Positions 30,030 through 47,588 of a DNA stretch of 64,000 nt are shown in pieces. This stretch comes from Bacteroidales bacterium (GTDB lineage Bacteria > Bacteroidota > Bacteroidia > Bacteroidales > UBA12077). Numbering within the stretch: the stretch's first letter is position 1; the number at the start of each line of letters is the position of its first letter. The stretch lies in assembly GCA_028282585.1 (NCBI GenBank), contig JANQHR010000028.1, positions 1 through 64,000 of the forward strand, in the 5' to 3' direction. The translations under genes and the position numbers were made by a program. Under the pieces are notes generated by a model. The model searched no databases and was not told the DNA's origin. It was given only the letters and a program-made list of their open reading frames with translations.

Positions 30030-31202
30030 TTATAAGCGGTATTTATATAATTCGCTTAGAGCCTGATAATAATCTCTCTCAACCATTAAATATTCATCGT
30101 ATATCTCGTAGTAATAAAACATCTCGATAAAGAATTCTATCACAGAAATTTCACCATTTTTTAATGATACATTTAATAATTCCTGGCTATTAACAGAACC
30201 TAAAACCGATTGATAATTTTCAAGATTTTCTTTTAAAGTTAAAATTTGATCATACCTTATCCTTGTTTCAGCAACTTTAGATTCATTCAAGGAAATGGCA
30301 CTTAAATCAAAATATTCTGATTCAATTTTAGCTTTTTGAATTGTCCTTTTGCTACTCCACAGTGGAATTGACACCCCAACTATCACACCTTTAAATCTTT
30401 CATTAACAATTGTCTCACTACTATAGCCCAAACTAAACTTAGGTAACTGCAAATTCTTAGTAATTTTAAGTTGCCTATTTGAGGCTTCGGCTGCTTTTTG
30501 TTGAGAAAGTAATTCAGGATCTGAAGAAAGTCTTTCAAAAAGAAGAGAATCTAATTCAATTAATGGTTGTTCCTGATAATCATCAACTGAAATATCAAGA
30601 TCATTTCCTCCATTGAGTTTTTTTATATTTTCTTTAATAATTAATAATTCAGACTTTAATAATTTTTCTTCTTTTTTAACTTGCATCAAATGAAGTTTCG
30701 TTTTATTCACTTCCAAAGCATTTGCATCGCCCACTTCCAATCGAATCAAATATGCATTATGAATATCATCAGCAAATTTCAATCGTTTATCATTTATTGC
30801 TGTTTTTTTCATTAAATATACATATTCATTCAAAAGTATTTTAACTTCATTTAAGACATCTTGTTTTAGAATCAAATGGTTATATTCCTCCTGGTTAATC
30901 ATTAAATTAGCATAAGCCTTATGATTTATATAATAATAAGGCATTTGAAATGATTGACTCACCTCAAAAACTTCCCTGGTTCCAGGAACAGAAGAATTAT
31001 CAGGAAAATATCCATACGTTAACTTAGGACCTTCAGGTAGATTATCTTTCTTGTATTCATATGATTTACTTTCAATATATTTTTTCCCTGCTTGTATATC
31101 TTTATTATTTTCTTCAATAGTATTTAAAATCTCATCAAATGATTGAGAAAAAACGCTTGCTGATAGAAATAATAATGAAATAAATATTGTCTTAGTTTTC
31201 AT
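30030..31202 (-). CDS. TolC/CzcC-family outer membrane efflux protein
   Basis: Signal peptide, GVSIPLW, GEIS motif; last gene of the RND operon. Confidence 0.88.
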   Translation of the reverse strand: MKTKTIFISLLFLSASVFSQSFDEILNTIEENNKDIQAGKKYIESKSYEYKKDNLPEGPKLTYGYFPDNSSVPGTREVFEVSQSFQMPYYYINHKAYANLMINQEEYNHLILKQDVLNEVKILLNEYVYLMKKTAINDKRLKFADDIHNAYLIRLEVGDANALEVNKTKLHLMQVKKEEKLLKSELLIIKENIKKLNGGNDLDISVDDYQEQPLIELDSLLFERLSSDPELLSQQKAAEASNRQLKITKNLQLPKFSLGYSSETIVNERFKGVIVGVSIPLWSSKRTIQKAKIESEYFDLSAISLNESKVAETRIRYDQILTLKENLENYQSVLGSVNSQELLNVSLKNGEISVIEFFIEMFYYYEIYDEYLMVERDYYQALSELYKYRL

Positions 31203-34200
31203 CTTTTATCTCCTTTTTGTGAATTAAATAATAAATTACCGGAACAAGATAAATATTTAACAATGTTGACGTTAATAGTCCTCCAAGAATAACCTTGGCC
31301 ATTGGACTTTGAATTTCATTCCCGGATACGTCTCCTTTAATTGCCAAAGGTATTAAAGCCAGTGCTGCTGTTAAAGCAGTCATCAAAATAGGATGCAAAC
31401 GATTTGCCGAACCTGAAGTAATATAAGTTTTCAAAGGTACGCCTTGCAACTCTAATTGTTGATAATGTGACATAAGTAATATTCCGTTTCGGGTAGCAAT
31501 ACCAAACAAAGTAATAAAACCAATAATTGAAGGAATACTTATAATTCCCGATGTAAAAAATATTGTGAATACGCCACCAATTAATGCAAGAGGTAAATTC
31601 ACCATAATTATAGCTGCAAGTTTCAGGTCTTTCAACTCTTGATACAACAGTAAGAAGATTATAAGAATTGCAATAGCCGAAACCAACATTAACGTTTGGG
31701 ATGCTCTTGCTTCGCTTTCGAATTGCCCACCATACTGAATCATATAATTTTCCGGTAAGGTAATGCTTTCATTAATTTCCTTCTGAATATCAGTTACAAC
31801 ACTTCGCAAATCTCGTTCAGCTACATTCGCAGAAATAACAACTTTTCGTTGCACATTTTCCCGGCTTATTGAACTTGGGCCGGCAACGGAAACTATATTC
31901 GCAACTTGCTCCAATGGTACTTTCTTGCCATCTTCAGTATCGATTAACGCACTTCTAATTCCTTTAATAGATTCTGTATAATCTTTATTTAAGCGAATTA
32001 TTAAATCAAACTTTCGTTGGCCTTCGTAGATATCACCTAGCTTTTCTCCGGCAAATGCCAGCTCAACAAACTCGTTAAATGTATTCATTGAGATTCCATA
32101 ACGAGCTAGCATTTCACGATTTGCTTTTATCTGAATCTGTGGGATTTCAACTTGCTGCTCAACGTTTACATCAACCAATCCAGGAACACTTGCTATGGTA
32201 TTCTGAATTTGATTACCAATAGTAAACATTTTGTTAAGATCAGTTCCAAAAAGCTTTATGGCTATATTTGCGCGTGTCCCGGAAAGCATGTGATCAATTC
32301 TGTGTCCTAATGGCTGACCTACGGTAGCTGCAATTCCCGGAACACCCGCAAGCTTATCGCGAACATCTGCCATAAATTCATCACGGCTTCTTTCATCCAG
32401 TTCAAAATTCACATCAATCTCTGCACTGTTAGTGGTTAGAGAATGTTCATCCAATTCACCGCGTCCCGTGCGTCGTGCCGTACTTGATACCTCAGGTATT
32501 GCTAAAAGTTCTGTTTCAATAAGATTACCTAAACGATTGCTTTCTTCCAATGAAATTCCAGGTTTACTAATTACAGAAATCGTTAAAGCACCTTCGTTAA
32601 ATTCCGGCAAGAAACTACGTCCCATAGTAGAAAGTGCTACTAACGAAATTATAAACAAGCCAATTGCTCCAAATAAAACAACTTTTTTATAGCGCAGAAC
32701 CCATTCTAAAGTTTTAATATACCCTCTATTTAACTTTGTAATAAACCAACTGTCTTTCTCTTTACGTATTAAATATCTTTCGTTAGATAGCATCAGCTTG
32801 CAAAGAAGTGGTGTTAGTGTCATTGCTACAATAGTTGATATACATAATGAAACAATATAAGCAATACCTAAAGGTTTTAACATTCTGCCTTCCATTCCTG
32901 TGAGGAAGAATAAGGGCACAAATGCTGCAATAATTATAAATGTTGCATATATAATTGAAGCTCGAATCTCTTTTGAAGCCTCATAAACCACGTGGAATGG
33001 AGATTCTCTTTCTTTTTTAGGTAGTTTATGATTTTGCCGCAATCGTTTATATACATTTTCTACATCGATAATTGCATCATCAACCAGAGATCCAATAGCA
33101 ATGGCCATTCCACCCAAACTCATTGTATTAATATTTAATCCGAGTAGTTTTAATACGATAATGGTTCCTAACAAAGAAATTGGAATTGCAATAACAGAAA
33201 TAATTGTAGTTCGGAAACTACCTAAAAAGATGAATAGAATTAAAATTACAAATATGGCACCTTCAATTAATGCTCTTTGTACATTGTATACCGATTTTTC
33301 AATAAAATCCGCCTGACGAAAAATTTCACTGTCTAATGTAACATCTGCTGGAAGTGTTTTTCTCAACTCTTCCAGATTTTTTTCGATATTTTCAGTGAGC
33401 TTTAATGTATTTGTATTAGGTTGTTTCGATATAGAAAGTATAACAGATGGTTTTGCATTTTGAGATGCATAACCCATTTTAACAGCTGAACCTATTTTAA
33501 CTTCTGCCACATCGTTAACCAATACAGGCCTTCCGTTCAATGTTTTTACATAGGAGTTTCTCAACTGCTCAAGATCGAATGTTTTACCAATTCCACGAAC
33601 TACGTATTCGTTACCATATTCGCGTACAACGCTACCCGCTGAATTATTACTAATTCCTTCGCAAACTGTAGCTAATTCTTCCAAAGAAACACCATAATAT
33701 TTCATTTTTATAGGATCTGCTAAAACCTGATATTGTTTATAATCACCACCAATTATGGTTACCTGCGAAACTCCACCAGTTGCCAATAGCACGGGTTTTA
33801 CATTCCAGTCTGCAATAGTTCTTAAGTCCATTAATGAGGTAGAATCAGATTGTAATCCTATAAATAAAATCTCACCCATTACAGACGATTGCGGAGCTAA
33901 CATAGGCTGTCCGATATTTAAAGGCATTTGACCTGCAAGCGTTACCATTTTTTCGCTTACGACCTGTCTTGCTTTATATATATCTGTTCCCCAATCGAAC
34001 TCAACCCAGACAAAAGAAAACCCCTGGCTCGATACGGAACGCACACGACGCACATCCGTTGCACCATTAACAGCCGTTTCTATAGGGAAAGTTACCATTC
34101 TTTCTACTTCTTCTGCTGCCATTCCATGCGCATCTGTCATAACAACAACCGTAGGTGCTGTTAAATCCGGAAACACATCCACATCCATTCTTTGAGCCGT

Positions 34201-34287
34201 ATAAAAACCCGTAAACATAAGAGCCGCAGCACTAAGAAGTATAAAGAACTTATTGTTCAAGGAAAATTTTATAATATTATTTAACAT
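31192..34287 (-). CDS. CzcA/CusA-family heavy-metal RND permease
   Basis: DVFPDL, VDDAIIDVEN, FLPEFNEG and RLHPILMT motifs; 1031 aa. Confidence 0.93.
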   Translation of the reverse strand: MLNNIIKFSLNNKFFILLSAAALMFTGFYTAQRMDVDVFPDLTAPTVVVMTDAHGMAAEEVERMVTFPIETAVNGATDVRRVRSVSSQGFSFVWVEFDWGTDIYKARQVVSEKMVTLAGQMPLNIGQPMLAPQSSVMGEILFIGLQSDSTSLMDLRTIADWNVKPVLLATGGVSQVTIIGGDYKQYQVLADPIKMKYYGVSLEELATVCEGISNNSAGSVVREYGNEYVVRGIGKTFDLEQLRNSYVKTLNGRPVLVNDVAEVKIGSAVKMGYASQNAKPSVILSISKQPNTNTLKLTENIEKNLEELRKTLPADVTLDSEIFRQADFIEKSVYNVQRALIEGAIFVILILFIFLGSFRTTIISVIAIPISLLGTIIVLKLLGLNINTMSLGGMAIAIGSLVDDAIIDVENVYKRLRQNHKLPKKERESPFHVVYEASKEIRASIIYATFIIIAAFVPLFFLTGMEGRMLKPLGIAYIVSLCISTIVAMTLTPLLCKLMLSNERYLIRKEKDSWFITKLNRGYIKTLEWVLRYKKVVLFGAIGLFIISLVALSTMGRSFLPEFNEGALTISVISKPGISLEESNRLGNLIETELLAIPEVSSTARRTGRGELDEHSLTTNSAEIDVNFELDERSRDEFMADVRDKLAGVPGIAATVGQPLGHRIDHMLSGTRANIAIKLFGTDLNKMFTIGNQIQNTIASVPGLVDVNVEQQVEIPQIQIKANREMLARYGISMNTFNEFVELAFAGEKLGDIYEGQRKFDLIIRLNKDYTESIKGIRSALIDTEDGKKVPLEQVANIVSVAGPSSISRENVQRKVVISANVAERDLRSVVTDIQKEINESITLPENYMIQYGGQFESEARASQTLMLVSAIAILIIFLLLYQELKDLKLAAIIMVNLPLALIGGVFTIFFTSGIISIPSIIGFITLFGIATRNGILLMSHYQQLELQGVPLKTYITSGSANRLHPILMTALTAALALIPLAIKGDVSGNEIQSPMAKVILGGLLTSTLLNIYLVPVIYYLIHKKEIKDEN

Positions 34288-34299
34288 AGTATTTCAATT

Positions 34300-35820
34300 T
34301 TAGTGAACATGTCCTGCATGAGGGTCTAAACTATTTGAAACTGCAGCCAGTTTTACAATAATCGCACCTTTTGTAACTATCCTGTCCGTTTCTTTAATTC
34401 CGGTAATGATTTGCGTTTTTATTCCATCGGATAACCCGATTTTCACCTCTCGTTTTTCAAACATCTCAGGTGTAATCTGTACAAATACAAAATAGTTAGC
34501 TTGCTCTTCCACCAATGCAGAATTCGGCACTAATAAGGCTTTTTCTTTTGAGTTAGTTTTAATAAATATTTCTACAAAACTTCCGGCTAAAAAGTTCTCA
34601 TTGTCATCAATCTGAAAATTTACAGGTATTAAAAATCCTTCATCTCCATCAATATGTTTACCATAAGAAAGTAACTTGCCATTTAATTCCCTTTCTGAAT
34701 AGTATTTATTATTTGTAGTTGATTTTATATTGAATGATGTAATTGAGCTTAAGTAAGGGAAATAACTTTGCTGAACTTCAGCTTTTACAATAAGCTTATG
34801 TTCTTCTTTGCAAACAGAAAATAAAGCTTCACCAGCTTCTACATATTGCCCATTTTCCACATATACATGGTTAATTGTACCTTTCTCAGAAGAAAAAACA
34901 ACCTGTCCACTCTCATTAAAATTACTTTCTAAATTCTCGAACACAGCTTTTGCATTTTCATAAATAACCTTGGCTTCTTCTACTTCTTTTTCTGAAACAA
35001 TTTGATTTTGCGATAAAGCCAGTTTTCTTTCATAATCTGCTTTTGCAGCTTCGAAATTGTTTTTTGCTTCCAGAAATCGAACTTCTGCGTTATCGTTTGC
35101 TAAACCATTGCCGGAAATAGTTAAAAATGACTCGCCGCTTTTTAACTCCTGCCCCTCAAGAATATTCTTATGAAATTTAACTACTCCATTGGTTTTAGCC
35201 GTAATTAGTGTTTCGCTGTTTTGATCTGGTAAAAGTTGAGCTGATGTTTTAATGACTTTTCCAAAGTAGTCAAAAGATGGATATTCGGTTCTAAAATCAA
35301 TTTTCCAGGACTGCTCCTTCGTAAAATTAATAGCATTTACATGCTCAGATTGTTTTTTATTAGCTATATGAATTGCTGAATGTTCATCGTCATAAACAAC
35401 TATTTCTGTTTCAATTATATGCTTTTTATCAGAATTAATTTCAAAAGTTAATCTTCCGGAACCACTCATTTCGGGTTTTAGGGAAAATTTAAAAATCCCT
35501 GGAGTTTCGCTCGTTTCAACTGTCTGTTTATTTTCACCACTTCCAACTTTTAATATTGCAGTTACCGAAGCATTAGTTAGAGGTTTAAAGCCTGGTATTG
35601 AAGTAAAATGAGCAACTATTTCAGAGTCATTACCTTTTGAAAATGGATCTGCTTCTGCAAATAACTCATAATAATTTGAATATTCAATTAGTTGAAGTTT
35701 TACGTCACCATGATCGTAACTGCTATGATCATGATCGTGTTCATGATTATCTGATTCTTTAATACTACAACTTACTGTAAATATGGTCAGAATCAGAATA
35801 AATATTGAAACTTGTTTCAT
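34300..35820 (-). CDS. RND periplasmic adaptor (CzcB-like) lipoprotein with His-rich termini
   Basis: Lipobox TVSC, HEHDHDH, C-terminal PHAGHVH; upstream of the RND permease. Confidence 0.9.
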   Translation of the reverse strand: MKQVSIFILILTIFTVSCSIKESDNHEHDHDHSSYDHGDVKLQLIEYSNYYELFAEADPFSKGNDSEIVAHFTSIPGFKPLTNASVTAILKVGSGENKQTVETSETPGIFKFSLKPEMSGSGRLTFEINSDKKHIIETEIVVYDDEHSAIHIANKKQSEHVNAINFTKEQSWKIDFRTEYPSFDYFGKVIKTSAQLLPDQNSETLITAKTNGVVKFHKNILEGQELKSGESFLTISGNGLANDNAEVRFLEAKNNFEAAKADYERKLALSQNQIVSEKEVEEAKVIYENAKAVFENLESNFNESGQVVFSSEKGTINHVYVENGQYVEAGEALFSVCKEEHKLIVKAEVQQSYFPYLSSITSFNIKSTTNNKYYSERELNGKLLSYGKHIDGDEGFLIPVNFQIDDNENFLAGSFVEIFIKTNSKEKALLVPNSALVEEQANYFVFVQITPEMFEKREVKIGLSDGIKTQIITGIKETDRIVTKGAIIVKLAAVSNSLDPHAGHVH

Positions 35821-35908
35821 TTTATCTAAAATTTATTATGTATTTAATATGAATTCAAGTTAGAAGTTAATATTAACCTCTAAGCTTCTATCTATGTATA
35901 TAGTTGTA

Positions 35909-36316
35909 TTAACCTATAGATGGTGGTCCTCTGAGGTGATTTGTTTTCGGTAATTGTTCAAAAACAATTTTAGTATGGAAAGTAAAATTATCCGATTTTT
36001 CTGTAATTGGGTATGAAAAAAAGGTACTTTCATTATTTGCTATAAAAGTTTTATCTATTGAAATTCCCGTTAAAACGTCTACATGGAAATGGCACACATG
36101 CTCATGGCGATCATGATTACATTTATGAACCTGTTCATTGTTCAGATCATCATCGTGATTGTGAGAATGGTGGCAATCGTTATGGTGGTCATGTGAATGG
36201 CTCCTATCCGAATAAAACTTCTCGACATGATGGTGATGCGGAATAACGCTATGGGCAAAGATAATTGCCCACGCTAAAAATAAAATAGATAATATTATTT
36301 TTTTGTTCCTTATCAC
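35909..36316 (-). CDS. His-rich leader protein (DUF6769-like) ending in an RGPP arrest-like motif
   Basis: TM/signal helix, IPHHHH, 19 His and 3 Cys in residues 22-78, RGPP at residues 129-132; first gene of the efflux operon. Confidence 0.8.
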   Translation of the reverse strand: MIRNKKIILSILFLAWAIIFAHSVIPHHHHVEKFYSDRSHSHDHHNDCHHSHNHDDDLNNEQVHKCNHDRHEHVCHFHVDVLTGISIDKTFIANNESTFFSYPITEKSDNFTFHTKIVFEQLPKTNHLRGPPSIG

Positions 36317-36320
36317 AGGT

Positions 36321-36328
36321 CAAATATA
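36321..36328 (-). promoter_or_regulatory. -7 promoter element implying a leaderless mRNA
   Basis: Minus strand TATATTTG-acct-GTG. Confidence 0.65.
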
Positions 36329-36357
36329 ATGAATAATTCCATTTTTACTATGATATG

Positions 36358-36384
36358 AAAAAGGGCACCTGGTTAAAAGTGCCC
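36358..36384 (-). terminator. Intrinsic terminator after ABC permease 1
   Basis: Minus strand GGGCAC-N10-GTGCCC followed by TTTTT. Confidence 0.65.
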
Positions 36385-36405: not shown

Positions 36406-38775
36406 TTATTCATATTTAAGAATGGTTGCAGGATTAGCTCTAGATGCTTTTAAAGATTGATATAATACTGATATCTGGGCAATAAACATAACAAGGATTC
36501 CTGCTAATAAAAAAACGTAGTAATCAAGTCCTGTTCTGTAAGAAAAATTCTGCAGCCATTTATCCAAATAAAAATATGCAAATGGCCAGGCTATTATCAT
36601 CGAAACTATTACCCATTTTGTAAATTCCCATGTTAGCATTCTTGTAATTGTTTGACTGGAAGCTCCGTGGGCTTTTCTTATTCCTATTTCTTTTGTTCTT
36701 CTTTCTGTCATATATGATGCTAACCCAAACAACCCTAAACAGGATAGAAATATGGCTATTGCGGCAAAAATTCCAAAAAGGCTACCTAACTTTTGTTCAG
36801 ACTTATAAAGTTTATCATATTCTTCATTCAAAAACTTAAAATCCATAGGAAATTCACCATTAAACTGATTCCATACTTCATTAATTTCCTTAATTGTCTT
36901 TTGTATTTCTGTACCATCAATTTTTATGAATATATAACCATATACATTTTTATTTAATGCAAGTACTAATGGTTCAACAGGTCTGTGTAAGGATTTAAAA
37001 TTAAAATCTTTCATAATTCCAATTATGTATCCCTTTGTATCCCAGAATTCAAACCATTTACCAATTGGCTCTTTAAGTTTCATTTGTTTTATTGCAGTTT
37101 CATTTAAAATAAAATTAGAAGAATCGGCAGGCCTGCTAAGATCGAAGTTTCTGCCTTCGATAAGATTTATATCAAAAGTTTGAACATATTCATGATCTGC
37201 AAAATACCAGTGAATTAGAACATGATCTTCTTCAGATTGTGTAGTATCCCTATCTTCCCAATCAATTCCTGTTGTAGAATTAACTGTATAAGTTGGAATA
37301 TTATTTGAATAAGTAACATTACTTACACCGCTTAGATTTTTTAATTCGGTTTTTAATGAAAAATAGTTATCATATAAATCACCTCTTATAGATGTATAAA
37401 GAATCTGTTCTTTATTAATTCCCAAATTTCTTTTTTGTATATAATTAAGTTGTTTGTAAACGAAAAAAGTTCCAATAATTAAGGCAATAGATAAAGTAAA
37501 TTGAAATATAACAAGTACTTTTCTAAAAATCGATGATCCTGATTGAACATCTCCTTTTAGCACATTAACAGGGATAAAAGAAGATAAATAAAATGCCGGG
37601 TAACTGCCTGCCAATAATCCCGTGAATAATAGAATTAATAATAAGCCGTATAAAAATTGACCGTTTGAATAATTAACTTCTAAAGCTTTACCGGTAAACT
37701 GATTTATATAAGGTAATAGTAACTCAACACTTATTATTGCTAAAAAATAGGAAATAATGGTCAATATTAATGATTCTCCAATAAATTGAAATATTAACTG
37801 TCGCCGTGAAGCACCTGAAACTTTTCTAATTCCTACTTCGCGAGCCCTTCTGGTTGCCCGGGCTGTTGAAAGATTCATGTAGTTAATAACGACAATCAGT
37901 ATAATTATTAAACCAACAACAGAAAAAAGATAAACATATTGATATTGTATTTCGGTATGTGAATATACATCAATATTAAAATCAGATTTTAAATGTATCT
38001 CACTTAATGGCTGTAAATAGTAAGTTTGATTAATCTCATAATCGTAAACCTCTTGTGCACTTTCCGTAAACTTACTATTCATACTTTTATAATCTGTATT
38101 ATTATCAAATAGTACATATGCATAATAATAGTTATTGTTCCAACTAATATTCCATCCAATTTCTTCCAATCTTTTAAATGGAACTAAAGCATTGAATTGT
38201 AAATGAGAATTTGACGGCACATCTTCAACAACACCAACTACAGTATAAATGCTTGATTGGTTTATCATTATATCTTTTCCTATTGGATTTTCCTGCCCAA
38301 AGCATTTTCTCGCAAATGATTCTGTAATAAGCATACTGGTGGTTAACTCCTTAAATTGTTCAAGAGATCCTTCTTTAATCCTAAAACTGAAAATATCAAA
38401 AAACTCCGGATCGACATAACCGTATCCGTCATCATAAAACTTTTTATCACCGCACGTAAACAATAGCTTACTTGTATATGGCCTAAATCTTGCCGATTTT
38501 AAAATTTCCGGAAACTCTTCATCAAACTTTTTTACCATTGGTGCCGGAGTTGCAGCAACTTTAAACTCACCATCGGTATGTTGTTGAGCTTGTACTAACC
38601 TATATATGGATTCATAATTTTCATGGAATTTATCATAATTAAGTTCATCTAAAATCCATAAATAGATAATCACCGAACATGCTAAGCCCGTTGCTAAGCC
38701 TAAAATATTTATTACCGTGTATCCCTTATACCGAATTAAAAACCGATATGCTATAAGTAAATAATTCCTTAACAT
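36406..38775 (-). CDS. MacB/FtsX-like ABC transporter permease (duplicated-domain type)
   Basis: REVGIRKVSGA and KEIGIRKAHGAS motifs, ends NPATILKYE. Confidence 0.92.
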   Translation of the reverse strand: MLRNYLLIAYRFLIRYKGYTVINILGLATGLACSVIIYLWILDELNYDKFHENYESIYRLVQAQQHTDGEFKVAATPAPMVKKFDEEFPEILKSARFRPYTSKLLFTCGDKKFYDDGYGYVDPEFFDIFSFRIKEGSLEQFKELTTSMLITESFARKCFGQENPIGKDIMINQSSIYTVVGVVEDVPSNSHLQFNALVPFKRLEEIGWNISWNNNYYYAYVLFDNNTDYKSMNSKFTESAQEVYDYEINQTYYLQPLSEIHLKSDFNIDVYSHTEIQYQYVYLFSVVGLIIILIVVINYMNLSTARATRRAREVGIRKVSGASRRQLIFQFIGESLILTIISYFLAIISVELLLPYINQFTGKALEVNYSNGQFLYGLLLILLFTGLLAGSYPAFYLSSFIPVNVLKGDVQSGSSIFRKVLVIFQFTLSIALIIGTFFVYKQLNYIQKRNLGINKEQILYTSIRGDLYDNYFSLKTELKNLSGVSNVTYSNNIPTYTVNSTTGIDWEDRDTTQSEEDHVLIHWYFADHEYVQTFDINLIEGRNFDLSRPADSSNFILNETAIKQMKLKEPIGKWFEFWDTKGYIIGIMKDFNFKSLHRPVEPLVLALNKNVYGYIFIKIDGTEIQKTIKEINEVWNQFNGEFPMDFKFLNEEYDKLYKSEQKLGSLFGIFAAIAIFLSCLGLFGLASYMTERRTKEIGIRKAHGASSQTITRMLTWEFTKWVIVSMIIAWPFAYFYLDKWLQNFSYRTGLDYYVFLLAGILVMFIAQISVLYQSLKASRANPATILKYE

Positions 38776-38918: not shown

Positions 38919-40277
38919 ATGGTAGAAAATAAACTATTGATAATTGATGATGATCAACAATTACTTGATACACTTTCATTAGTACTAAAATATGAGTTTG
39001 AAAAAATCAATACTATTAAAAATCCAAATCTGGTTCCGGAAATAATTAAAAAAGAACGATTTGATGTTGTTTTATTAGATATGAATTTTTCGGCTGGTAA
39101 AACAACTGGAAATGAAGGGTTATTTTGGTTAAGAAAGATTAAAGAATTTGATCCCGAAGCTACGGTTGTTATGATTTCTGCTTATGCAACCATTGATTTA
39201 GCAATAGAAATAATGAAAGAAGGTGCTGTGGATTTCATTTTGAAACCCTGGGAAAATCAAAAGTTAATTGCCACCCTTAAGTCTGCATGTAAGCTAAGTA
39301 AAACTAGGGATGAATTAGCGAAAAGTGAAGCTCTAAATACCTCAATTAATAATGACCTGGAAAGCGAACTCTCTTTAATGGACAGCAGTTCTCCGAAAAT
39401 GCAAAAAGTACTTGATACAATTAAAATTGTTGCGCCAACAGAAGCGAATGTATTAATATTAGGAGAAAACGGAACCGGAAAAGAAGTCATTGCACGAGAA
39501 ATCCATCGTAACTCATTGCGCAAAAACAAATATTTAGTGCAAGTTGATCTTGGTTCAATATCCGAAAGTTTATTTGAAAGTGAATTGTTCGGACACGTAA
39601 AAGGAGCTTTTACAGGTGCAATAGCAAATAAATTAGGCAGGTTTGAAATTGCCAGTGAAAGTACATTATTTTTAGATGAAATAGGAAACATTTCCATTAC
39701 GCATCAAGGTAAGCTATTATCGGCAATACAAAATAAAGAATTTTACCCGGTAGGAAGTGAAAGAATTGTAGAATCTAATGTGCGTATAATCTGTGCAACA
39801 AATAAAAACCTGGAGTTATTGGTTGAAGAAAATAATTTTCGTGAAGATTTACTTTATAGAATAAATACAATTCAATTAGAAATACCACCATTAAGAGATC
39901 GAAAAGAAGATATTAGAAAACTTGCAGAATTTTTCCTTAATCGATTCAACGATAAATACAACAAACATTGCCGGCTGCAGAAAAGTACAATCAAATATAT
40001 TGAATCTTATGATTGGCCGGGAAATATCAGAGAATTAAAACATACAATTGAAAGAGCTGTGATTCTGGCAAACAAAGATCAACTTATAATAGATCAGATT
40101 GGTTCTGTAAAGCATGGAACTGAGATGAAAGCTGAACGTAAAACCTGGAATGAAATCGAGAAATTTTATTTAAGGAAAACTTTTAATAAATATCATGGAA
40201 ATATATCTGAAATTGCACGTGAATTAAATCTTTCGCGTCCATCCATATATCGTAAAATCAAAAAACATGGTTTATAA
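38919..40277 (+). CDS. NtrC-family sigma54-dependent response regulator
   Basis: Receiver LLDMNF, GENGTGKE, GAFTGA, WPGNIREL, Fis-type HTH. Confidence 0.95.
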   Translation: MVENKLLIIDDDQQLLDTLSLVLKYEFEKINTIKNPNLVPEIIKKERFDVVLLDMNFSAGKTTGNEGLFWLRKIKEFDPEATVVMISAYATIDLAIEIMKEGAVDFILKPWENQKLIATLKSACKLSKTRDELAKSEALNTSINNDLESELSLMDSSSPKMQKVLDTIKIVAPTEANVLILGENGTGKEVIAREIHRNSLRKNKYLVQVDLGSISESLFESELFGHVKGAFTGAIANKLGRFEIASESTLFLDEIGNISITHQGKLLSAIQNKEFYPVGSERIVESNVRIICATNKNLELLVEENNFREDLLYRINTIQLEIPPLRDRKEDIRKLAEFFLNRFNDKYNKHCRLQKSTIKYIESYDWPGNIRELKHTIERAVILANKDQLIIDQIGSVKHGTEMKAERKTWNEIEKFYLRKTFNKYHGNISEIARELNLSRPSIYRKIKKHGL

Positions 40278-41601
40278 AAATTTCTACATAGGAATCCTGA
40301 TTATCGCAGTTTCAATTATTGGAACAGCTTACGCAATTAGTTGGATTGGTTTTAATGAGGAATATATTCATACTTTAATATTTTTACATATATTATTTGG
40401 CCTGGAGTTTGTATGGCTCATCACTTTTGTAAATAAAACCAATAGAATGCTGGATAGGTTTTTCTCTTCGATTAAAGAAGATGGCACATCTATTAAATTT
40501 GAGAGCACTATGGAAGAAAGCACCTTTAAATTACTTTCAAAAAGATTAAACAATGTTGTTGAAACCATTCAAAAAACGAGGATTGAAAAAGAAAATGAAC
40601 ATTACTTCTTAAAATATTTGGTTGAGCATATTAATACCGGAATAATTTCTATACTTAATAATGAAAGAATAGATTTATTAAATAAGACGGGAGTAAATAT
40701 TTTAGGCACTCATGAGTTATATAAAATTACAGACTTGAAAAAATTCGGCAAACAATTCTATAACAACATTATACGAATCCGAGCTGGAGAATATTTTCTA
40801 ACCAAAATCATAATTCAAAACGAAATTAAAGACATATCATTACGAGCATCTGAATTTAAGCTTTTTAAAAATCAAGTGAAATTAATATCATTTCATGATG
40901 TCCACCAAGAGATAGAACAAAAAGAAATAGATGCATGGCAAAAAATTATAAGAATACTTGCGCACGAAATTTCAAGTTCTGTCTCGCCAATTCGTTCGTT
41001 AAGCGATCATTTAATTACATTAATTAATAAAGATGATCCAAAATATTTAAATGATGTTAAAGATGGTGTAAATATTATTCATCAAAGAAGTGACGGGTTA
41101 ATGAACTTTGTTTCGAAATACCGACAAGTAACAGATATTCCAGAACCTATATTAAAACCAATATCATTAAATGAAATTATTAGTGATTTAGAGCTTATAT
41201 CCAGCGCAGAATTTAATTTAAAATCGTCGTTAAAAATCCATAGACCCGAAGAAGAAATCTTAATTAATGCCGATAAGAATTTAATTATGCAAGCTGCTTT
41301 AAATATTATAAGAAATGCATCAGAAGCCGTTAAATCAATTTCCAATCCGATGATTAAAATTACAGGAAATGTGAATTACAATAAGGCCGTTCTGGAAATT
41401 ACTGATAACGGTATAGGAATTGACTTCGAAGATCTTGAAAATGTCTTTATACCTTTTTTCAGCACAAAAGAAAATGGTTCGGGTATTGGTTTAGCAATTG
41501 CAAAGCAGTTAATTAATAAACAGGGAGGCCGAATTGATATTCAATCAAAACCGGATAAAGGTACATCCGTTAAAATTTATTTCGAATACTATAAAAATTA
41601 A
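40267..41601 (+). CDS. Sensor histidine kinase (2 TM, PAS-like, HATPase)
   Basis: LAHEI, NIIRNA, DNGIG, PFFSTK and GSGIGL motifs. Confidence 0.92.
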   Translation: MVYKNFYIGILIIAVSIIGTAYAISWIGFNEEYIHTLIFLHILFGLEFVWLITFVNKTNRMLDRFFSSIKEDGTSIKFESTMEESTFKLLSKRLNNVVETIQKTRIEKENEHYFLKYLVEHINTGIISILNNERIDLLNKTGVNILGTHELYKITDLKKFGKQFYNNIIRIRAGEYFLTKIIIQNEIKDISLRASEFKLFKNQVKLISFHDVHQEIEQKEIDAWQKIIRILAHEISSSVSPIRSLSDHLITLINKDDPKYLNDVKDGVNIIHQRSDGLMNFVSKYRQVTDIPEPILKPISLNEIISDLELISSAEFNLKSSLKIHRPEEEILINADKNLIMQAALNIIRNASEAVKSISNPMIKITGNVNYNKAVLEITDNGIGIDFEDLENVFIPFFSTKENGSGIGLAIAKQLINKQGGRIDIQSKPDKGTSVKIYFEYYKN

Positions 41602-44688: not shown

Positions 44689-47064
44689 CTATAACATGTT
44701 TCCTATTTTAAATCCAAAATATACAGTTCTTGGCAACGATGGTCCGTATAAATATCCCGGATCTCTGTTTATTGTTACATCAAAATCGTCTTGGTAAGAA
44801 TTAAAAATATTCTTCATACCAGCAAATACTTGCATGCTTGCCCCATTTAATTTAAACTGGTAACTTAGCTTAGCTCCAAGGTCATAAAATGGATCAGATT
44901 CTCTTAACTCTCCAATTGGTTCGCCTTCACTATCTACTGGGCTTTCTGTTCCAAAATAAGGAACTAACATACTTCCCGTATACGTTCCTGATACTAATAA
45001 GCTAAATTCTTTATAGAAATCCCAATCAATTGTAAGATAACCATAATTGTTAGGTGTTCTGAAGAAATCTTTCTCATCAAATTCCTGAGCTTCTTCATAT
45101 GCACTCTGTTGAATTGTAAATCCACTGCTAAAAGCAAAATCTCCTTCAGGAACAATATTAAGTTCCATGTTAACACCGCTTACCGTAGCACCTCCTTCGG
45201 CATTAACACGCGTATATGTTACAACTCCATCTACCGGATCTCCATATTCATTGGCAAAGGCGTCAACTAAATCAGTGTAGAAACCTTCAACTAAGAAACC
45301 TGTGTAAACCTTACCCAATTGTTTATTGAAATCAAATGATAACATATAACTGTGACTGGTTTCTTGTTTTAAGTTTGGATCATTATCATGCAATACCCGT
45401 CTTGAACCCGAAGTTTCAATATGCAGATCCTCGTCAAATATTTGCGGAGCGCGATAACCTTGTGAATAACTTGCACGTGCCTGAATTATATCTAAAATAT
45501 CATATTTTAAAGTAAACCTGGGACTTAAAACATCTCCAGTTACACTATGCCCATCTACTTCATCTTCAATTTCATAATGATCATACCTAACACCTGCAGA
45601 AACACTTAAATCATTAAACTTATGTTCGTATTGTGCAAATCCACCATAAATATTTGAAACCTGATCGGCTACCAAAGTATTTTCTGTATGAGTAGTTACT
45701 ATTTCACCACTCACAATCTCATTTACAGGATATCCAAGTTTCTTGTCATTTAAAGTTTCGCCTCTATATTCAAATCCTCCTGTTAAATTTGAGTTCTTAA
45801 AATACGCTGTATACTGGGCTCCAATATTATAAGTTAATCCTTCTGTCTTTCCATAGTCTTGCAATGATTGTTCAGCTCCATAATATGAATCACGGTCAAC
45901 TTTTTGAGCGGAGATAAACATCGAAAGTTTATCACGTTCTCTGAAAAATTGATCGAACGTTACGGCTCCGGTCGTAATATTATGATCAAGAGCTTCAGCA
46001 ATATCAGCTTGGTGTTTTGGTAAATCAAAATCATTTCCACCTCTTCTGTCTTCTTTTATATTAAAGAAATCAATAGCTATTTTGTTTCGATGCGTAAAAC
46101 GGTGAAATACTCTTGTTCCTACCGTTTGATTGTTTAATTGAGTAATCTCGGAGAACCCATCATCATTTGCGTCAAAAAACTCATGATCTCTGTAGTAACC
46201 ATATAAAGCCATACCAGTTCTGCTATCTGAAGATACCAGGGAAGTATTAAAATTTAAATTATAATCAAAAGCAGGATCTCCACTGCCATCAACACCTAAT
46301 CCCATAAAACCGGAAGAAGCTCCTACTTCATAAGAATTGTTTATAGGGTCCTTTAAAATTAGATTAATTGTTCCTGCAATAGCATTACTTCCATAAAGTG
46401 CAGAACCACCACCTCTAATAATTTCCATTCTTTCAATCATATTAGATGGTATAAGTTCTAAACCATAAACTCCCGCTAAACCACTAAAAATAGGTCGGCT
46501 GTTAATTAAAATTTGAGAATAAGGACCTTCCATACCATTCATTCTTACCTGAGAGAAGCCACAATTCTGGCAATTGTTTTCCATCCTTAAACCAGGAGAA
46601 AAATTTAAACCGTCGCTAATTGTAGCAGTTTGTGCTACTTCAAAAAGACGCGGAGTTAGTGTGTTTACAATTACAGATGCTTCCGTTCTGTTTTTTTCAT
46701 TTCTATCGGCTGTAACCACAACTTCTTCTAATCCTAAAACATCATTTTCTAAATGAATTTTCAATTCGATTGTATTTTTCTCTTTTAATTCTACTTCCTG
46801 GCTAAATGGTTTATACCCTATAGCTGATGCCACTAGAGTAAAATTACCAACTGGCATATGAATAAGGTTAAAATGGCCTGTTTCATCTGTCGCTGTTCCA
46901 ATGGTTGTTCCTTTAAGCACCACAGTAGCGAATGGTAAATGTTTTCCTTCAGAATCGACAACATGCCCAACAATATTTGCATCCGTTCTATTTCTTTGTG
47001 CCGAAGCATTTATTGATAAAAAAAGAATTAAAATTAGTTGTGATATATATATAGTTTTTTTCAT
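44689..47064 (-). CDS. TonB-dependent receptor, probably for a transition metal
   Basis: N-terminal carboxypeptidase-regulatory-like domain, LEEVVVTA, plug with CQNC, IERMEIIRGGGSALYGS, FDEDLH. Confidence 0.9.
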   Translation of the reverse strand: MKKTIYISQLILILFLSINASAQRNRTDANIVGHVVDSEGKHLPFATVVLKGTTIGTATDETGHFNLIHMPVGNFTLVASAIGYKPFSQEVELKEKNTIELKIHLENDVLGLEEVVVTADRNEKNRTEASVIVNTLTPRLFEVAQTATISDGLNFSPGLRMENNCQNCGFSQVRMNGMEGPYSQILINSRPIFSGLAGVYGLELIPSNMIERMEIIRGGGSALYGSNAIAGTINLILKDPINNSYEVGASSGFMGLGVDGSGDPAFDYNLNFNTSLVSSDSRTGMALYGYYRDHEFFDANDDGFSEITQLNNQTVGTRVFHRFTHRNKIAIDFFNIKEDRRGGNDFDLPKHQADIAEALDHNITTGAVTFDQFFRERDKLSMFISAQKVDRDSYYGAEQSLQDYGKTEGLTYNIGAQYTAYFKNSNLTGGFEYRGETLNDKKLGYPVNEIVSGEIVTTHTENTLVADQVSNIYGGFAQYEHKFNDLSVSAGVRYDHYEIEDEVDGHSVTGDVLSPRFTLKYDILDIIQARASYSQGYRAPQIFDEDLHIETSGSRRVLHDNDPNLKQETSHSYMLSFDFNKQLGKVYTGFLVEGFYTDLVDAFANEYGDPVDGVVTYTRVNAEGGATVSGVNMELNIVPEGDFAFSSGFTIQQSAYEEAQEFDEKDFFRTPNNYGYLTIDWDFYKEFSLLVSGTYTGSMLVPYFGTESPVDSEGEPIGELRESDPFYDLGAKLSYQFKLNGASMQVFAGMKNIFNSYQDDFDVTINRDPGYLYGPSLPRTVYFGFKIGNML

Positions 47065-47210: not shown

Positions 47211-47588
47211 CTAAACTTGTAATGATTGTGACGGCGGTCCACGAGTTTTACGTAAACCCAGGTTAATTGAATTAGAAAAGATACATGGCTTACTTAACAA
47301 TTCTAATTCAACATCTGCATTGAAGCGAAGATTTATAAAATTCTCAAAAGTTGTATATTGCTCAAATGAACTTAAGTAATCTAAGTCTATTCTATTGTGT
47401 CTATGCTTTGCAAGCGGATCATCTTTTTCCGCTCCTTTATCAAAAGGGTGTGCGTGAAAAATTATTTTTTCTGATTCAGTTTTGTGAGCATGAAGAAAGA
47501 ATGTGGAATTAACAATAATTCCTCCCATTATTAATAGGAATAATGAAGTAATAATTCCCTTTCTAATATGCTTATCTCTTCCTTTCAT
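47211..47588 (-). CDS. HxH-rich leader protein ending in an RGPP arrest-like motif
   Basis: TM helix; HAH, HAHP and HRH motifs; RGPP at residues 116-119; upstream of the TBDR. Confidence 0.78.
   Translation of the reverse strand: MKGRDKHIRKGIITSLFLLIMGGIIVNSTFFLHAHKTESEKIIFHAHPFDKGAEKDDPLAKHRHNRIDLDYLSSFEQYTTFENFINLRFNADVELELLSKPCIFSNSINLGLRKTRGPPSQSLQV

Follow-up and report, generated by a model that had tools for sequence, protein, structure and literature searches.

The open reading frame (ORF) at positions 35909..36316 (-) of the 64,000-nucleotide stretch analysed here (the window: positions 1 to 64,000 of contig JANQHR010000028.1, assembly GCA_028282585.1, from a Bacteroidales bacterium of the UBA12077 lineage) encodes a small histidine-rich protein at the head of a heavy-metal efflux operon of the resistance-nodulation-division (RND) type. 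On balance it is probably a cis-acting, metal-sensing arrest leader of this operon, comparable to CutF and CruR, in which a C-terminal motif of the RAPP type would hold the translating ribosome. By its sequence the leader belongs to a conserved Bacteroidota family that is weakly related to Pfam DUF6769. An arrest leader had been proposed in the initial annotation of the window; what sustains this proposal is the conservation of the motif, its avoidance elsewhere in the genome, an N-terminal helix, a peptide ruler, the first position in the operon and the absence of a methionine triad from the pump, whereas an RNA helix masking the next start codon is lacking in the window.

The leader ORF encodes 135 residues and runs from a GTG, the first start codon past the in-frame stop upstream, to a TAA. 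A basic RNKK stretch precedes a hydrophobic helix (residues 5-24, 36245..36304 (-)), which had been described as a signal or transmembrane helix: hydropathy is high at residues 6-25, and AlphaFold2 gives a confident helix at residues 5-24, a block with a predicted local distance difference test (pLDDT) score of 80-96. This helix could be a signal peptide or a signal anchor, and A-H-S is a possible cleavage site. Directly after it comes the family signature IPHHHH (residues 25-30, 36227..36244 (-)), in which H27 and H29 are invariant in 86/86 aligned relatives and P26 nearly so. It is followed by a His/Asp-rich segment variable in both length and sequence (residues 31-65, 36122..36226 (-)) and by the conserved Cys/His motif CNHDRHEHVCHFHV (residues 66-79, 36080..36121 (-)), a candidate metal site. 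A residue count bears out the richness in histidine and cysteine noticed initially, since residues 22-78 hold 19 His and 3 Cys, the full-length protein having 21 His and 3 Cys in total. A peptide spacer of fixed length and poorly conserved sequence (residues 80-128, 35933..36079 (-)) leads to the RGPP reported in the initial annotation, a motif of the RAPP arrest type (residues 129-132, 35921..35932 (-)) that lies three codons ahead of the stop, the tail S-I-G preceding the TAA. AlphaFold2, run on an 86-sequence alignment, gave a mean pLDDT of 64.8 and a predicted template-modelling score of 0.27, with values of 50-70 outside helix 5-24, and a sequence profile search of the PDB found no related solved structure (best E 0.17). 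The absence of a predicted fold beyond the N-terminal helix fits a transient nascent-chain sensor, though a protein that folds only on metal binding could also be compatible with it.

The arrest motif is conserved throughout the family, the point on which the proposal had been made to depend. A word-indexed protein search returned 22 close homologues at E<=0.01, out of 30 candidates, and an exhaustive search of 50%-identity representatives returned 88 at E<=0.001, nearly all of 115-150 residues. R[AG]PP is present in 22/22 close homologues, and 84 of the 88 representatives have R[AGS]PP no more than 10 residues from the C-terminus (49 RAPP, 34 RGPP, 1 RSPP). Between 2 and 8 residues follow it, and a Leu precedes the Arg in 68; the four representatives without the motif are the shortest (98-124 residues) and apparently truncated. 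Thirteen positions are invariant in 22/22 close homologues (A15, W16, I19, H22, P26, H27, H29, C75, F77, D88, R129, P131 and P132), and in the 86-sequence alignment the invariant residues reduce to H27, H29, R129, P131 and P132. Among 31 loci from GTDB species genomes, all of them metagenome-assembled genomes of Bacteroidota, R[AG]PP occurs in 30. An independent metagenome set of 80 loci yielded, by a heuristic, 71 complete leader-like ORFs, 63 of which carry R[AG]PP, the others ending in RGSP (4), KAPP (2) or otherwise (2); this metagenome scan contained no relative above 49% identity. The codons of the motif vary synonymously between loci, which indicates that selection acts on the peptide. 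The distribution of the family is patchy, with matches at E<=0.001 in 19/301 sampled Bacteroidota genomes and 18/144 genera.

Elsewhere in the source genome (4.89 Mb, 31.9% G+C) the motif is avoided. The census was made on a crude six-frame ORF set, with expected counts calculated from composition. In the 3,299 long ORFs (>=150 residues; 1.38 million residues), there is no occurrence of RGPP (expected 2.8), RAPP (2.5), RAGP (4.8) or RSPP (3.1). RGPP and RAPP jointly give 0 vs 5.3 expected, and the controls AGPP (4 observed, 4.4 expected) and RGPG (6 observed, 5.4 expected) are near expectation; KGPP and KAPP were each observed 3 times (expected 6.9 and 6.1). Only five ORFs of 60-300 residues have R[AG]PP within 10 residues of the C-terminus. 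All five are 123-135 residues long and all have an N-terminal hydrophobic segment and then His residues. Apart from the leader, these ORFs head TonB-dependent receptor loci, three of the four lying 47-146 nucleotides (nt) upstream of the receptor. One of them is in the window (47211..47588 (-), 125 residues, ending in ...RKTRGPPSQSLQV), with an N-terminal hydrophobic segment and His motifs; a TonB-dependent receptor with CarboxypepD_reg, Plug and beta-barrel domains (44689..47064 (-)) begins 146 nt below it. It probably represents a further RGPP arrest leader and would fall in the 'TonB-related' class already published. Of the three further small ORFs ending in RAPP or RGPP (L033-L035; contigs C16:98306-98698, C147:26605-26982 and C147:59904-60275), two are directly upstream of TonB-dependent receptors and one heads a DUF6686-flavodoxin-DUF2023-TonB-receptor cluster that resembles an iron-limitation set. 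A profile of the leader family matched only the leader itself in this genome, the other four ORFs having no detectable homology to it. The pattern matches the one described by Fujiwara et al. 2025 (PMC12992588), where, across bacteria, RAPP-like motifs are reported to be excluded from proteomes but over-represented at the C-terminal ends of small exported proteins whose genes lie upstream of metal-related ones.

A second constraint is on length. From the Cys-x-Phe of the Cys/His motif (CHF in the window; C75) to the Arg of the arrest motif (R129) there are exactly 54 residues in 22/22 close homologues. Of the 52 representatives with CxF, 36 have this same distance and 50 have one of 54-57; the distance is 54 in 17 and 55 in 4 of 22 such genome loci, and 54 in 17 and 56 in 6 of 23 such metagenome loci. 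The residues in between are poorly conserved among the 22 close homologues, and family members differ in how far the N-terminal PHxH stands from the Arg (81 to 119 residues). A spacer fixed in length and free in sequence has been described between CXXC and RAPP in CruR, where it measures 45 residues +/- one or two (PMC9426467), and the 45-residue spacing of CutF has been explained as ~30 residues in the ribosomal tunnel and ~17 across the membrane (PMC9973294). By the CutF arithmetic, we infer that 54-57 residues would place C75-H-F-H just outside SecY during arrest, with Pro131 and Pro132 in the P and A sites of the ribosome.

The leader also keeps its place. An RND-pump gene follows it in 30/31 genome loci. 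The frame is broken in one locus, L013, which lies on a 3.3-kb contig; in the remaining 30, which were scored for the next gene, this is an adaptor in 15, a small His-rich lipoprotein (~80 residues) and then an adaptor in 6, and an RND permease in 9. The leader is therefore first regardless of which pump gene comes next. The spacer to the next gene measures 51-90 nt in all genome loci but one. Sixty metagenome loci had at least 400 nt of downstream DNA, and tblastn identified an adaptor as the next gene in 26 and an RND permease in 18. Pfam, applied to 15 of the other 16 (L108 was left out, its downstream ORF starting like that of L107), gave two OEP proteins, two HlyD adaptors, five S-adenosylmethionine (SAM)-dependent methyltransferases, two DUF2231 proteins and four without a family. 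Metal-efflux genes are thereby associated with the family in at least 48/60 of these loci, and the link to RND efflux, though strong, has exceptions.

These regularities have a bearing on the possibility that the stall is released by translocation force alone, so that the leader would report the status of Sec or of the envelope, or set a fixed level of read-through, and would not sense metal. Such is the classical logic of SecM, VemP, ApdA and ApdP, and the N-terminal export signal is present here as well; yet it gives no place to a Cys/His site conserved at a fixed distance from the motif, nor to metal-efflux genes adjoining the leader in nearly every genome locus and in most metagenome loci. 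We consider this explanation improbable.

An unlikely explanation, although one to be taken seriously, is that the product matures and acts in trans in the envelope, as a membrane-anchored or periplasmic His/Cys metallochaperone, or as an accessory or regulatory subunit of the pump in the way proposed for CzcI or CusF. R[AG]PP would then be a structural or binding motif and any pause would be incidental. The exclusion of the motif from long ORFs, together with its C-terminal recurrence in small exported ORFs that are unrelated to the leader and stand at the head of other metal loci, points instead to a property of the motif and not of a partner. A mature protein could well account for the conservation of IPHHHH and of the Cys/His motif, and the product is His-rich, like the N-terminus of the adaptor and the small lipoprotein of six loci; it accounts less well for a spacer fixed in length and free in sequence, for the absence of a predicted fold and for the constant first place of the gene, irrespective of the pump gene behind it. 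With a terminator-like hairpin behind the gene, the small protein could be made in large excess over the pump, and the window shows no RNA switch. The CzcI family (NF045614) is weakly matched by 2/86 relatives (best E 0.011), the leader itself having no match at E<=0.1, but CzcI is described as having no proline motif at its C-terminus (PMC9973294).

The genes that the leader would control are those named in the initial annotation. The adaptor starts at 35820, leaving the 88-nt gap that had been noted (35821..35908), and matches to TIGR01730, TIGR00914 and OEP identify the three pump components: an RND periplasmic adaptor of the HlyD/RND family and of lipoprotein type (34300..35820 (-); TIGR01730, 123.5 bits), a CusA/CzcA-family heavy-metal RND permease (31192..34287 (-); TIGR00914, 809.5 bits vs a cut-off of 701) and an outer-membrane factor of the OEP/TolC family (30030..31202 (-)). 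Predicted to be a lipoprotein (…TVSC), the adaptor would after maturation start with a stretch rich in His and Asp (NHEHDHDHSSYDH), and it ends in HAGHVH; these ends may be metal-handling tails.

Overall similarity of the pump was rejected as a guide to metal specificity, since the permease resembles CusA (476 bits) and the zinc pump ZneA (469 bits) to about the same degree, and only the methionine triad is informative. We take the Cu(I)/Ag(I) triad of CusA to be M573, M623 and M672, mapped in the alignment through 'DLLYMPS', 'PLEMVE' and 'RIDML'. The corresponding positions of the permease read Ser, Ser and His. Taken together, the missing triad and the His/Asp-rich N-terminus of the adaptor favour a divalent cation as the exported metal, in line with the Zn, Ni or Co suggested initially.

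A candidate promoter lies close to the leader. The putative -7 box TATATTTG (36321..36328 (-)), which ends 4 nt ahead of the conserved GTG, matches the Bacteroidota consensus TAnnTTTG (PMC7366714). The box is at exactly -12 in the window and in 14/30 loci, with a one-mismatch version there in three more; in the metagenome set it is found at -12 to -16 in 26/69 loci and at -25 or -26 in 8. From this position a leaderless or near-leaderless GUG mRNA is predicted, with a 5' leader of 0 to a few nt. In Bacteroides thetaiotaomicron, ~3.7% of 5' untranslated regions are shorter than 10 nt (PMC7366714). The stretch from the -7 box to about -40 is conserved among close loci.

Several points weigh against an arrest leader that senses metal. 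The motif is not absolute, as four metagenome relatives have RGSP and two have KAPP. The strong conservation of IPHHHH and CHFHV would suit a mature metal-binding protein too, and the direction of control (metal prolonging or relieving the stall) would be inferred from the export function of the pump only. The others come from the RNA. Masking of the adaptor start codon, as judged by partition-function folding with and without a 28-nt stalled-ribosome footprint, was rejected for the window: 0.01 pairs are expected between the footprint and the adaptor start, and accessibility is 0.49 in both states. Taken over all 31 loci, pairing of the footprint with the start region does not exceed that of control blocks (Wilcoxon p = 0.26). 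An intrinsic terminator in the spacer of the window was rejected as well, a consensus scan and a looser scan both being negative. Furthermore, the modelled probability of the spacer hairpin is 0.79 without a ribosome, 0.80 with a stalled ribosome and 0.81 with a ribosome at the stop, and in 12/15 loci the hairpin probability shifts by less than 0.2 between ribosome states.

This hairpin (35857..35887 (-), 10 + 3 pairs) begins 22 nt past the stop, within the 88-nt leader-adaptor spacer (35821..35908 (-); 19% G+C, with C exceeding G), and no T-run comes after it; in L002, the closest relative, a hairpin at the same place is followed by ATTTTTAATATT. Alternative structures of the trp type were rejected as a general mechanism because the hairpin probability is about the same for every ribosome position. 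Structure in the spacers is more frequent than in shuffled sequences. A hairpin with a T-run occurs in 15/31 genome spacers (shuffles: mean 1.5, maximum 5) and in 27/70 metagenome spacers (shuffles: mean 6.2, maximum 14), vs 7/60 control segments from the next gene. Spacer folding has a mean z-score of -1.29, with 9/31 loci below -1.64.

A masking helix is found only in the six loci with an extra lipoprotein gene, where 3.7-9.8 pairs are expected within the footprint, and is absent from the other 24. In these six loci the leader stop region (TTTCATAATT) pairs with the next start codon (AATTATGAAA); as modelled, this helix between leader end and start codon is the SecM/CutF arrangement, confined to a six-locus subclade.

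The base composition of the leader end may offer another route for the output. C-G skew, measured on the last 120 nt of the leader and on the spacer vs the downstream gene, is +0.26 at the leader end in the window vs -0.15 downstream. C exceeds G at the leader end in 30/31 genome and 70/71 metagenome loci, vs 1/31 and 14/57 of the downstream genes. The C-rich, G-poor tract of CruR/TnaC-type control is thus found in the window, and Rho-type termination, with which the data are compatible, would be our preferred guess for the output route.

If the leader is an arrest peptide, the following sequence of events can be proposed. Transcription would start, as the promoter box predicts, at the GTG or within a few bases of it. 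The N-terminal helix would guide the ribosome to the Sec translocon while translation goes on; the His-rich segment would be threaded outward together with the Cys/His motif. Peptide-bond formation would then stall at R129-G-P-P132, as it does on the RAPP and RGPP arrest peptides of other bacteria. At that moment C75-H-F-H would lie 54-57 residues from the peptidyl-transferase centre, and thus at the outer mouth of SecY, this length being approximately that of the ribosomal tunnel plus the membrane. By analogy with CutF, binding of a divalent metal (more likely Zn, Co, Ni or Cd than Cu(I)) might alter the pulling force on the chain and so prolong the stall; a prolonging effect is assumed because the controlled genes export metal. 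A ribosome stalled on the last 15 nt of the ORF would permit expression of the pump genes, most likely by blocking termination in the C-rich, G-poor 3' end and spacer, either of the Rho type, as in CruR and TnaC, and/or at the spacer hairpin. In the absence of metal the chain would be pulled out, translation would finish and expression would stay low. Taken in its entirety, such a regulator-free co-translational sensor of periplasmic divalent metal, with a leaderless mRNA, an RGPP arrest prolonged by Zn, Co, Ni or Cd, blocked termination and the exporter switched on, is a tentative proposal whose chances we put below even.

A regulator-free scheme raises the question of what else lies nearby. 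Upstream of the leader is a MacB/FtsX-type permease gene (36406..38775), after which a terminator-like hairpin with a T-run (36363..36384 (-); an 8-pair stem with 5 G-C pairs, then TTTTTCAT) would close the transcription unit ahead of the leader. Farther away, on the opposite strand and 2.6 kb upstream of the leader, are genes for a sigma-54-type response regulator and a histidine kinase (38919..41601 (+)). They run divergently from the permease gene, and no link to the efflux operon was found; the kinase has two closely spaced N-terminal hydrophobic segments. The initial statement that no metal regulator is adjacent therefore holds only narrowly: no regulator of the MerR, ArsR or OmpR type adjoins the operon, but a two-component pair is present 2.6 kb away.

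It could accordingly be imagined that a conventional transcription factor, either this sigma-54 two-component pair or an unlinked one, dominates control of the operon and that the small ORF adds little. The proximity of the pair and the conserved stretch from the -7 box to about -40 would be in keeping with this, but the permease gene, with its own terminator-like site, separates the two-component genes from the leader, and inspection by eye of 36317..36362 revealed no GG-N10-GC sigma-54 box. Moreover, a MacB-type permease is directly upstream of the leader only in L002 among the 31 loci, where two-component genes were not searched for; L008 has a partial, opposite-strand match to such a permease 5.6 kb from the leader. 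Dominant control of this kind seems highly improbable.

The loci also differ in ways that go beyond the order of the pump genes. In five of the nine permease-first loci, permease and OEP are fused into a protein of ~1,450-1,465 residues with the adaptor behind, as Pfam confirmed for two. L023 (6530-10930) and L026 (6446-10837), and likewise L030-L032, have single ORFs of 1,446-1,466 residues with a complete ACR_tran and a C-terminal OEP domain; the fusion of an inner-membrane pump to an outer-membrane factor is a topological puzzle. The extra lipoprotein gene of L005, L009, L011, L017, L018 and L019 encodes ~80 residues rich in His, Asp and Glu (e.g. ...HDHDHDHDHDHQH). In L054, L069, L082, L087 and L107, the leader relative is followed by a SAM-dependent methyltransferase of the ubiE/COQ5 type (one weakly TehB-like), and L108, to judge by its likeness to L107, probably belongs with them. 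The RGSP variant is carried by L054 and L069, both followed by a methyltransferase. In L078 and L113 the next gene encodes a DUF2231 membrane protein.

Heavy-metal RND pumps are usually described as being under two-component or MerR/ArsR-type control, and many Bacteroidota operons have no such gene nearby. If the leader works as proposed, extracytoplasmic sensing of metal would control export through the translation and export of one small peptide. In that case no arrest peptide would have been shown before to control an RND efflux pump, to operate in Bacteroidota or to respond to a metal other than copper, and four metal-import loci of this genome would be run in the same way. The principle itself has already been published for copper (CruR, CutF) and the class has been catalogued. 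The value of the present family is thus that of a well-supported candidate sub-class with an arrest motif, a ruler, a Cys/His site and natural variants (RGSP, KAPP), and not that of a new mechanism.

The novelty assumed in the initial annotation has to be lowered accordingly, as two papers (PMC9973294 and the Fig. 4B data of PMC12992588) already list leaders of this sort in front of RND efflux genes. In Ozturk et al. 2023, genes for CutF-like proteins from Pseudomonadota, Actinomycetota and Bacteroidota are reported to precede OEP, ACR_tran and HlyD_D23 genes, some clusters having His-only motifs (PMC9973294). Among the 30 downstream classes with the strongest enrichment in the Fig. 4B data of Fujiwara et al. 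2025 are RND adaptors (620 against 148) and CusA/CzcA (50 against 7), and one row of these data has the same FIPHH...LRAPP architecture upstream of an adaptor gene (PMC12992588). The main text of that paper contains neither 'efflux' nor 'RND' (0 occurrences), and none of these efflux leaders was tested there. Our search brought up no paper in which an arrest leader is tested for an RND pump or in Bacteroidota, and the supplementary tables of PMC12992588 and PMC9973294 may list the family; the details that we did not find in print are the 54-residue ruler, the near-leaderless promoter and the whole-genome census of five leaders.

Assignment of the leader to a curated family gives little. Pfam and NCBIfam contain no significant family for it. 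DUF6769 (PF20558), a Pfam family without assigned function, reaches 13.2 bits (E 0.14), below its gathering score of 27; it is the only curated family matched by the relatives, 64/86 at E<=1 and 18/86 at E<=1e-4. Since the leader is sub-threshold while 18/86 relatives match, it would be a divergent outlier or part of a sister group. The literature found on DUF6769 consists of an unrelated paper on effectors of the Salmonella type VI secretion system. DUF2946 (PF11162), the family of CruR, has no match to the leader at E<=0.1 and only weak ones to 5/86 relatives (best E 0.033). Nor does the leader have the CXXC or CxxxC found ~45 residues before the proline motif in DUF2946, its cysteines being at 48, 66 and 75.

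Several known systems can be compared with the leader. CzcI of Cupriavidus metallidurans is likewise a small protein directly upstream of its pump genes, czcCBA, and a role in metal-sensing regulation has been suggested for it (PMC9973294); its lack of a C-terminal proline motif, mentioned above, sets it apart. CruR (BP2923 of Bordetella pertussis) has in common with the leader a tract with C>G at the 3' end of the gene and in the spacer, as well as the absence of a predicted fold, and in CruR the tract serves Rho-dependent termination (PMC9426467). However, CruR controls an importer, copper relieves its stall and the genes are then off, and its signal peptide is dispensable; it is a DUF2946 member with CXXC, and its spacer is 162 nt long in a locus of 72% G+C.

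The likeness to CutF of Rhodobacter capsulatus, for which a further precedent is available (bioRxiv 10.1101/2025.02.05.636593), would extend to function. Both proteins are small, both are exported or probably exported by Sec, both stand first in a metal-detoxification operon and in both a metal motif, a candidate one here, is separated by a set number of residues from a C-terminal proline stalling motif; for both it is proposed that the downstream genes are switched on when metal is present. They differ in the motif and ruler (CxxxC and 45 residues in CutF; C-x8-C-H-F-H with many His, 54 residues and RGPP here) and in the output, as CutF controls a multicopper oxidase and has a start-masking stem-loop, whereas the present leader precedes an RND exporter without such a stem-loop. 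Bacteroidota do not depend on Shine-Dalgarno pairing.

Finally, ApdA, ApdP, ApcA, SecM (RAGP) and the catalogued RAPP/RGPP upstream ORFs share with the leader a C-terminal motif, small size, an export signal, an upstream position and avoidance of the motif in the proteome. Arrest at RAPP/RGPP has been demonstrated in other bacteria and resists elongation factor P (PMC12992588). Of the features of this class of RAPP-type arrest peptides, the C-terminal motif, the export segment, the upstream position on the same strand and the avoidance in the proteome are found in the leader described here.

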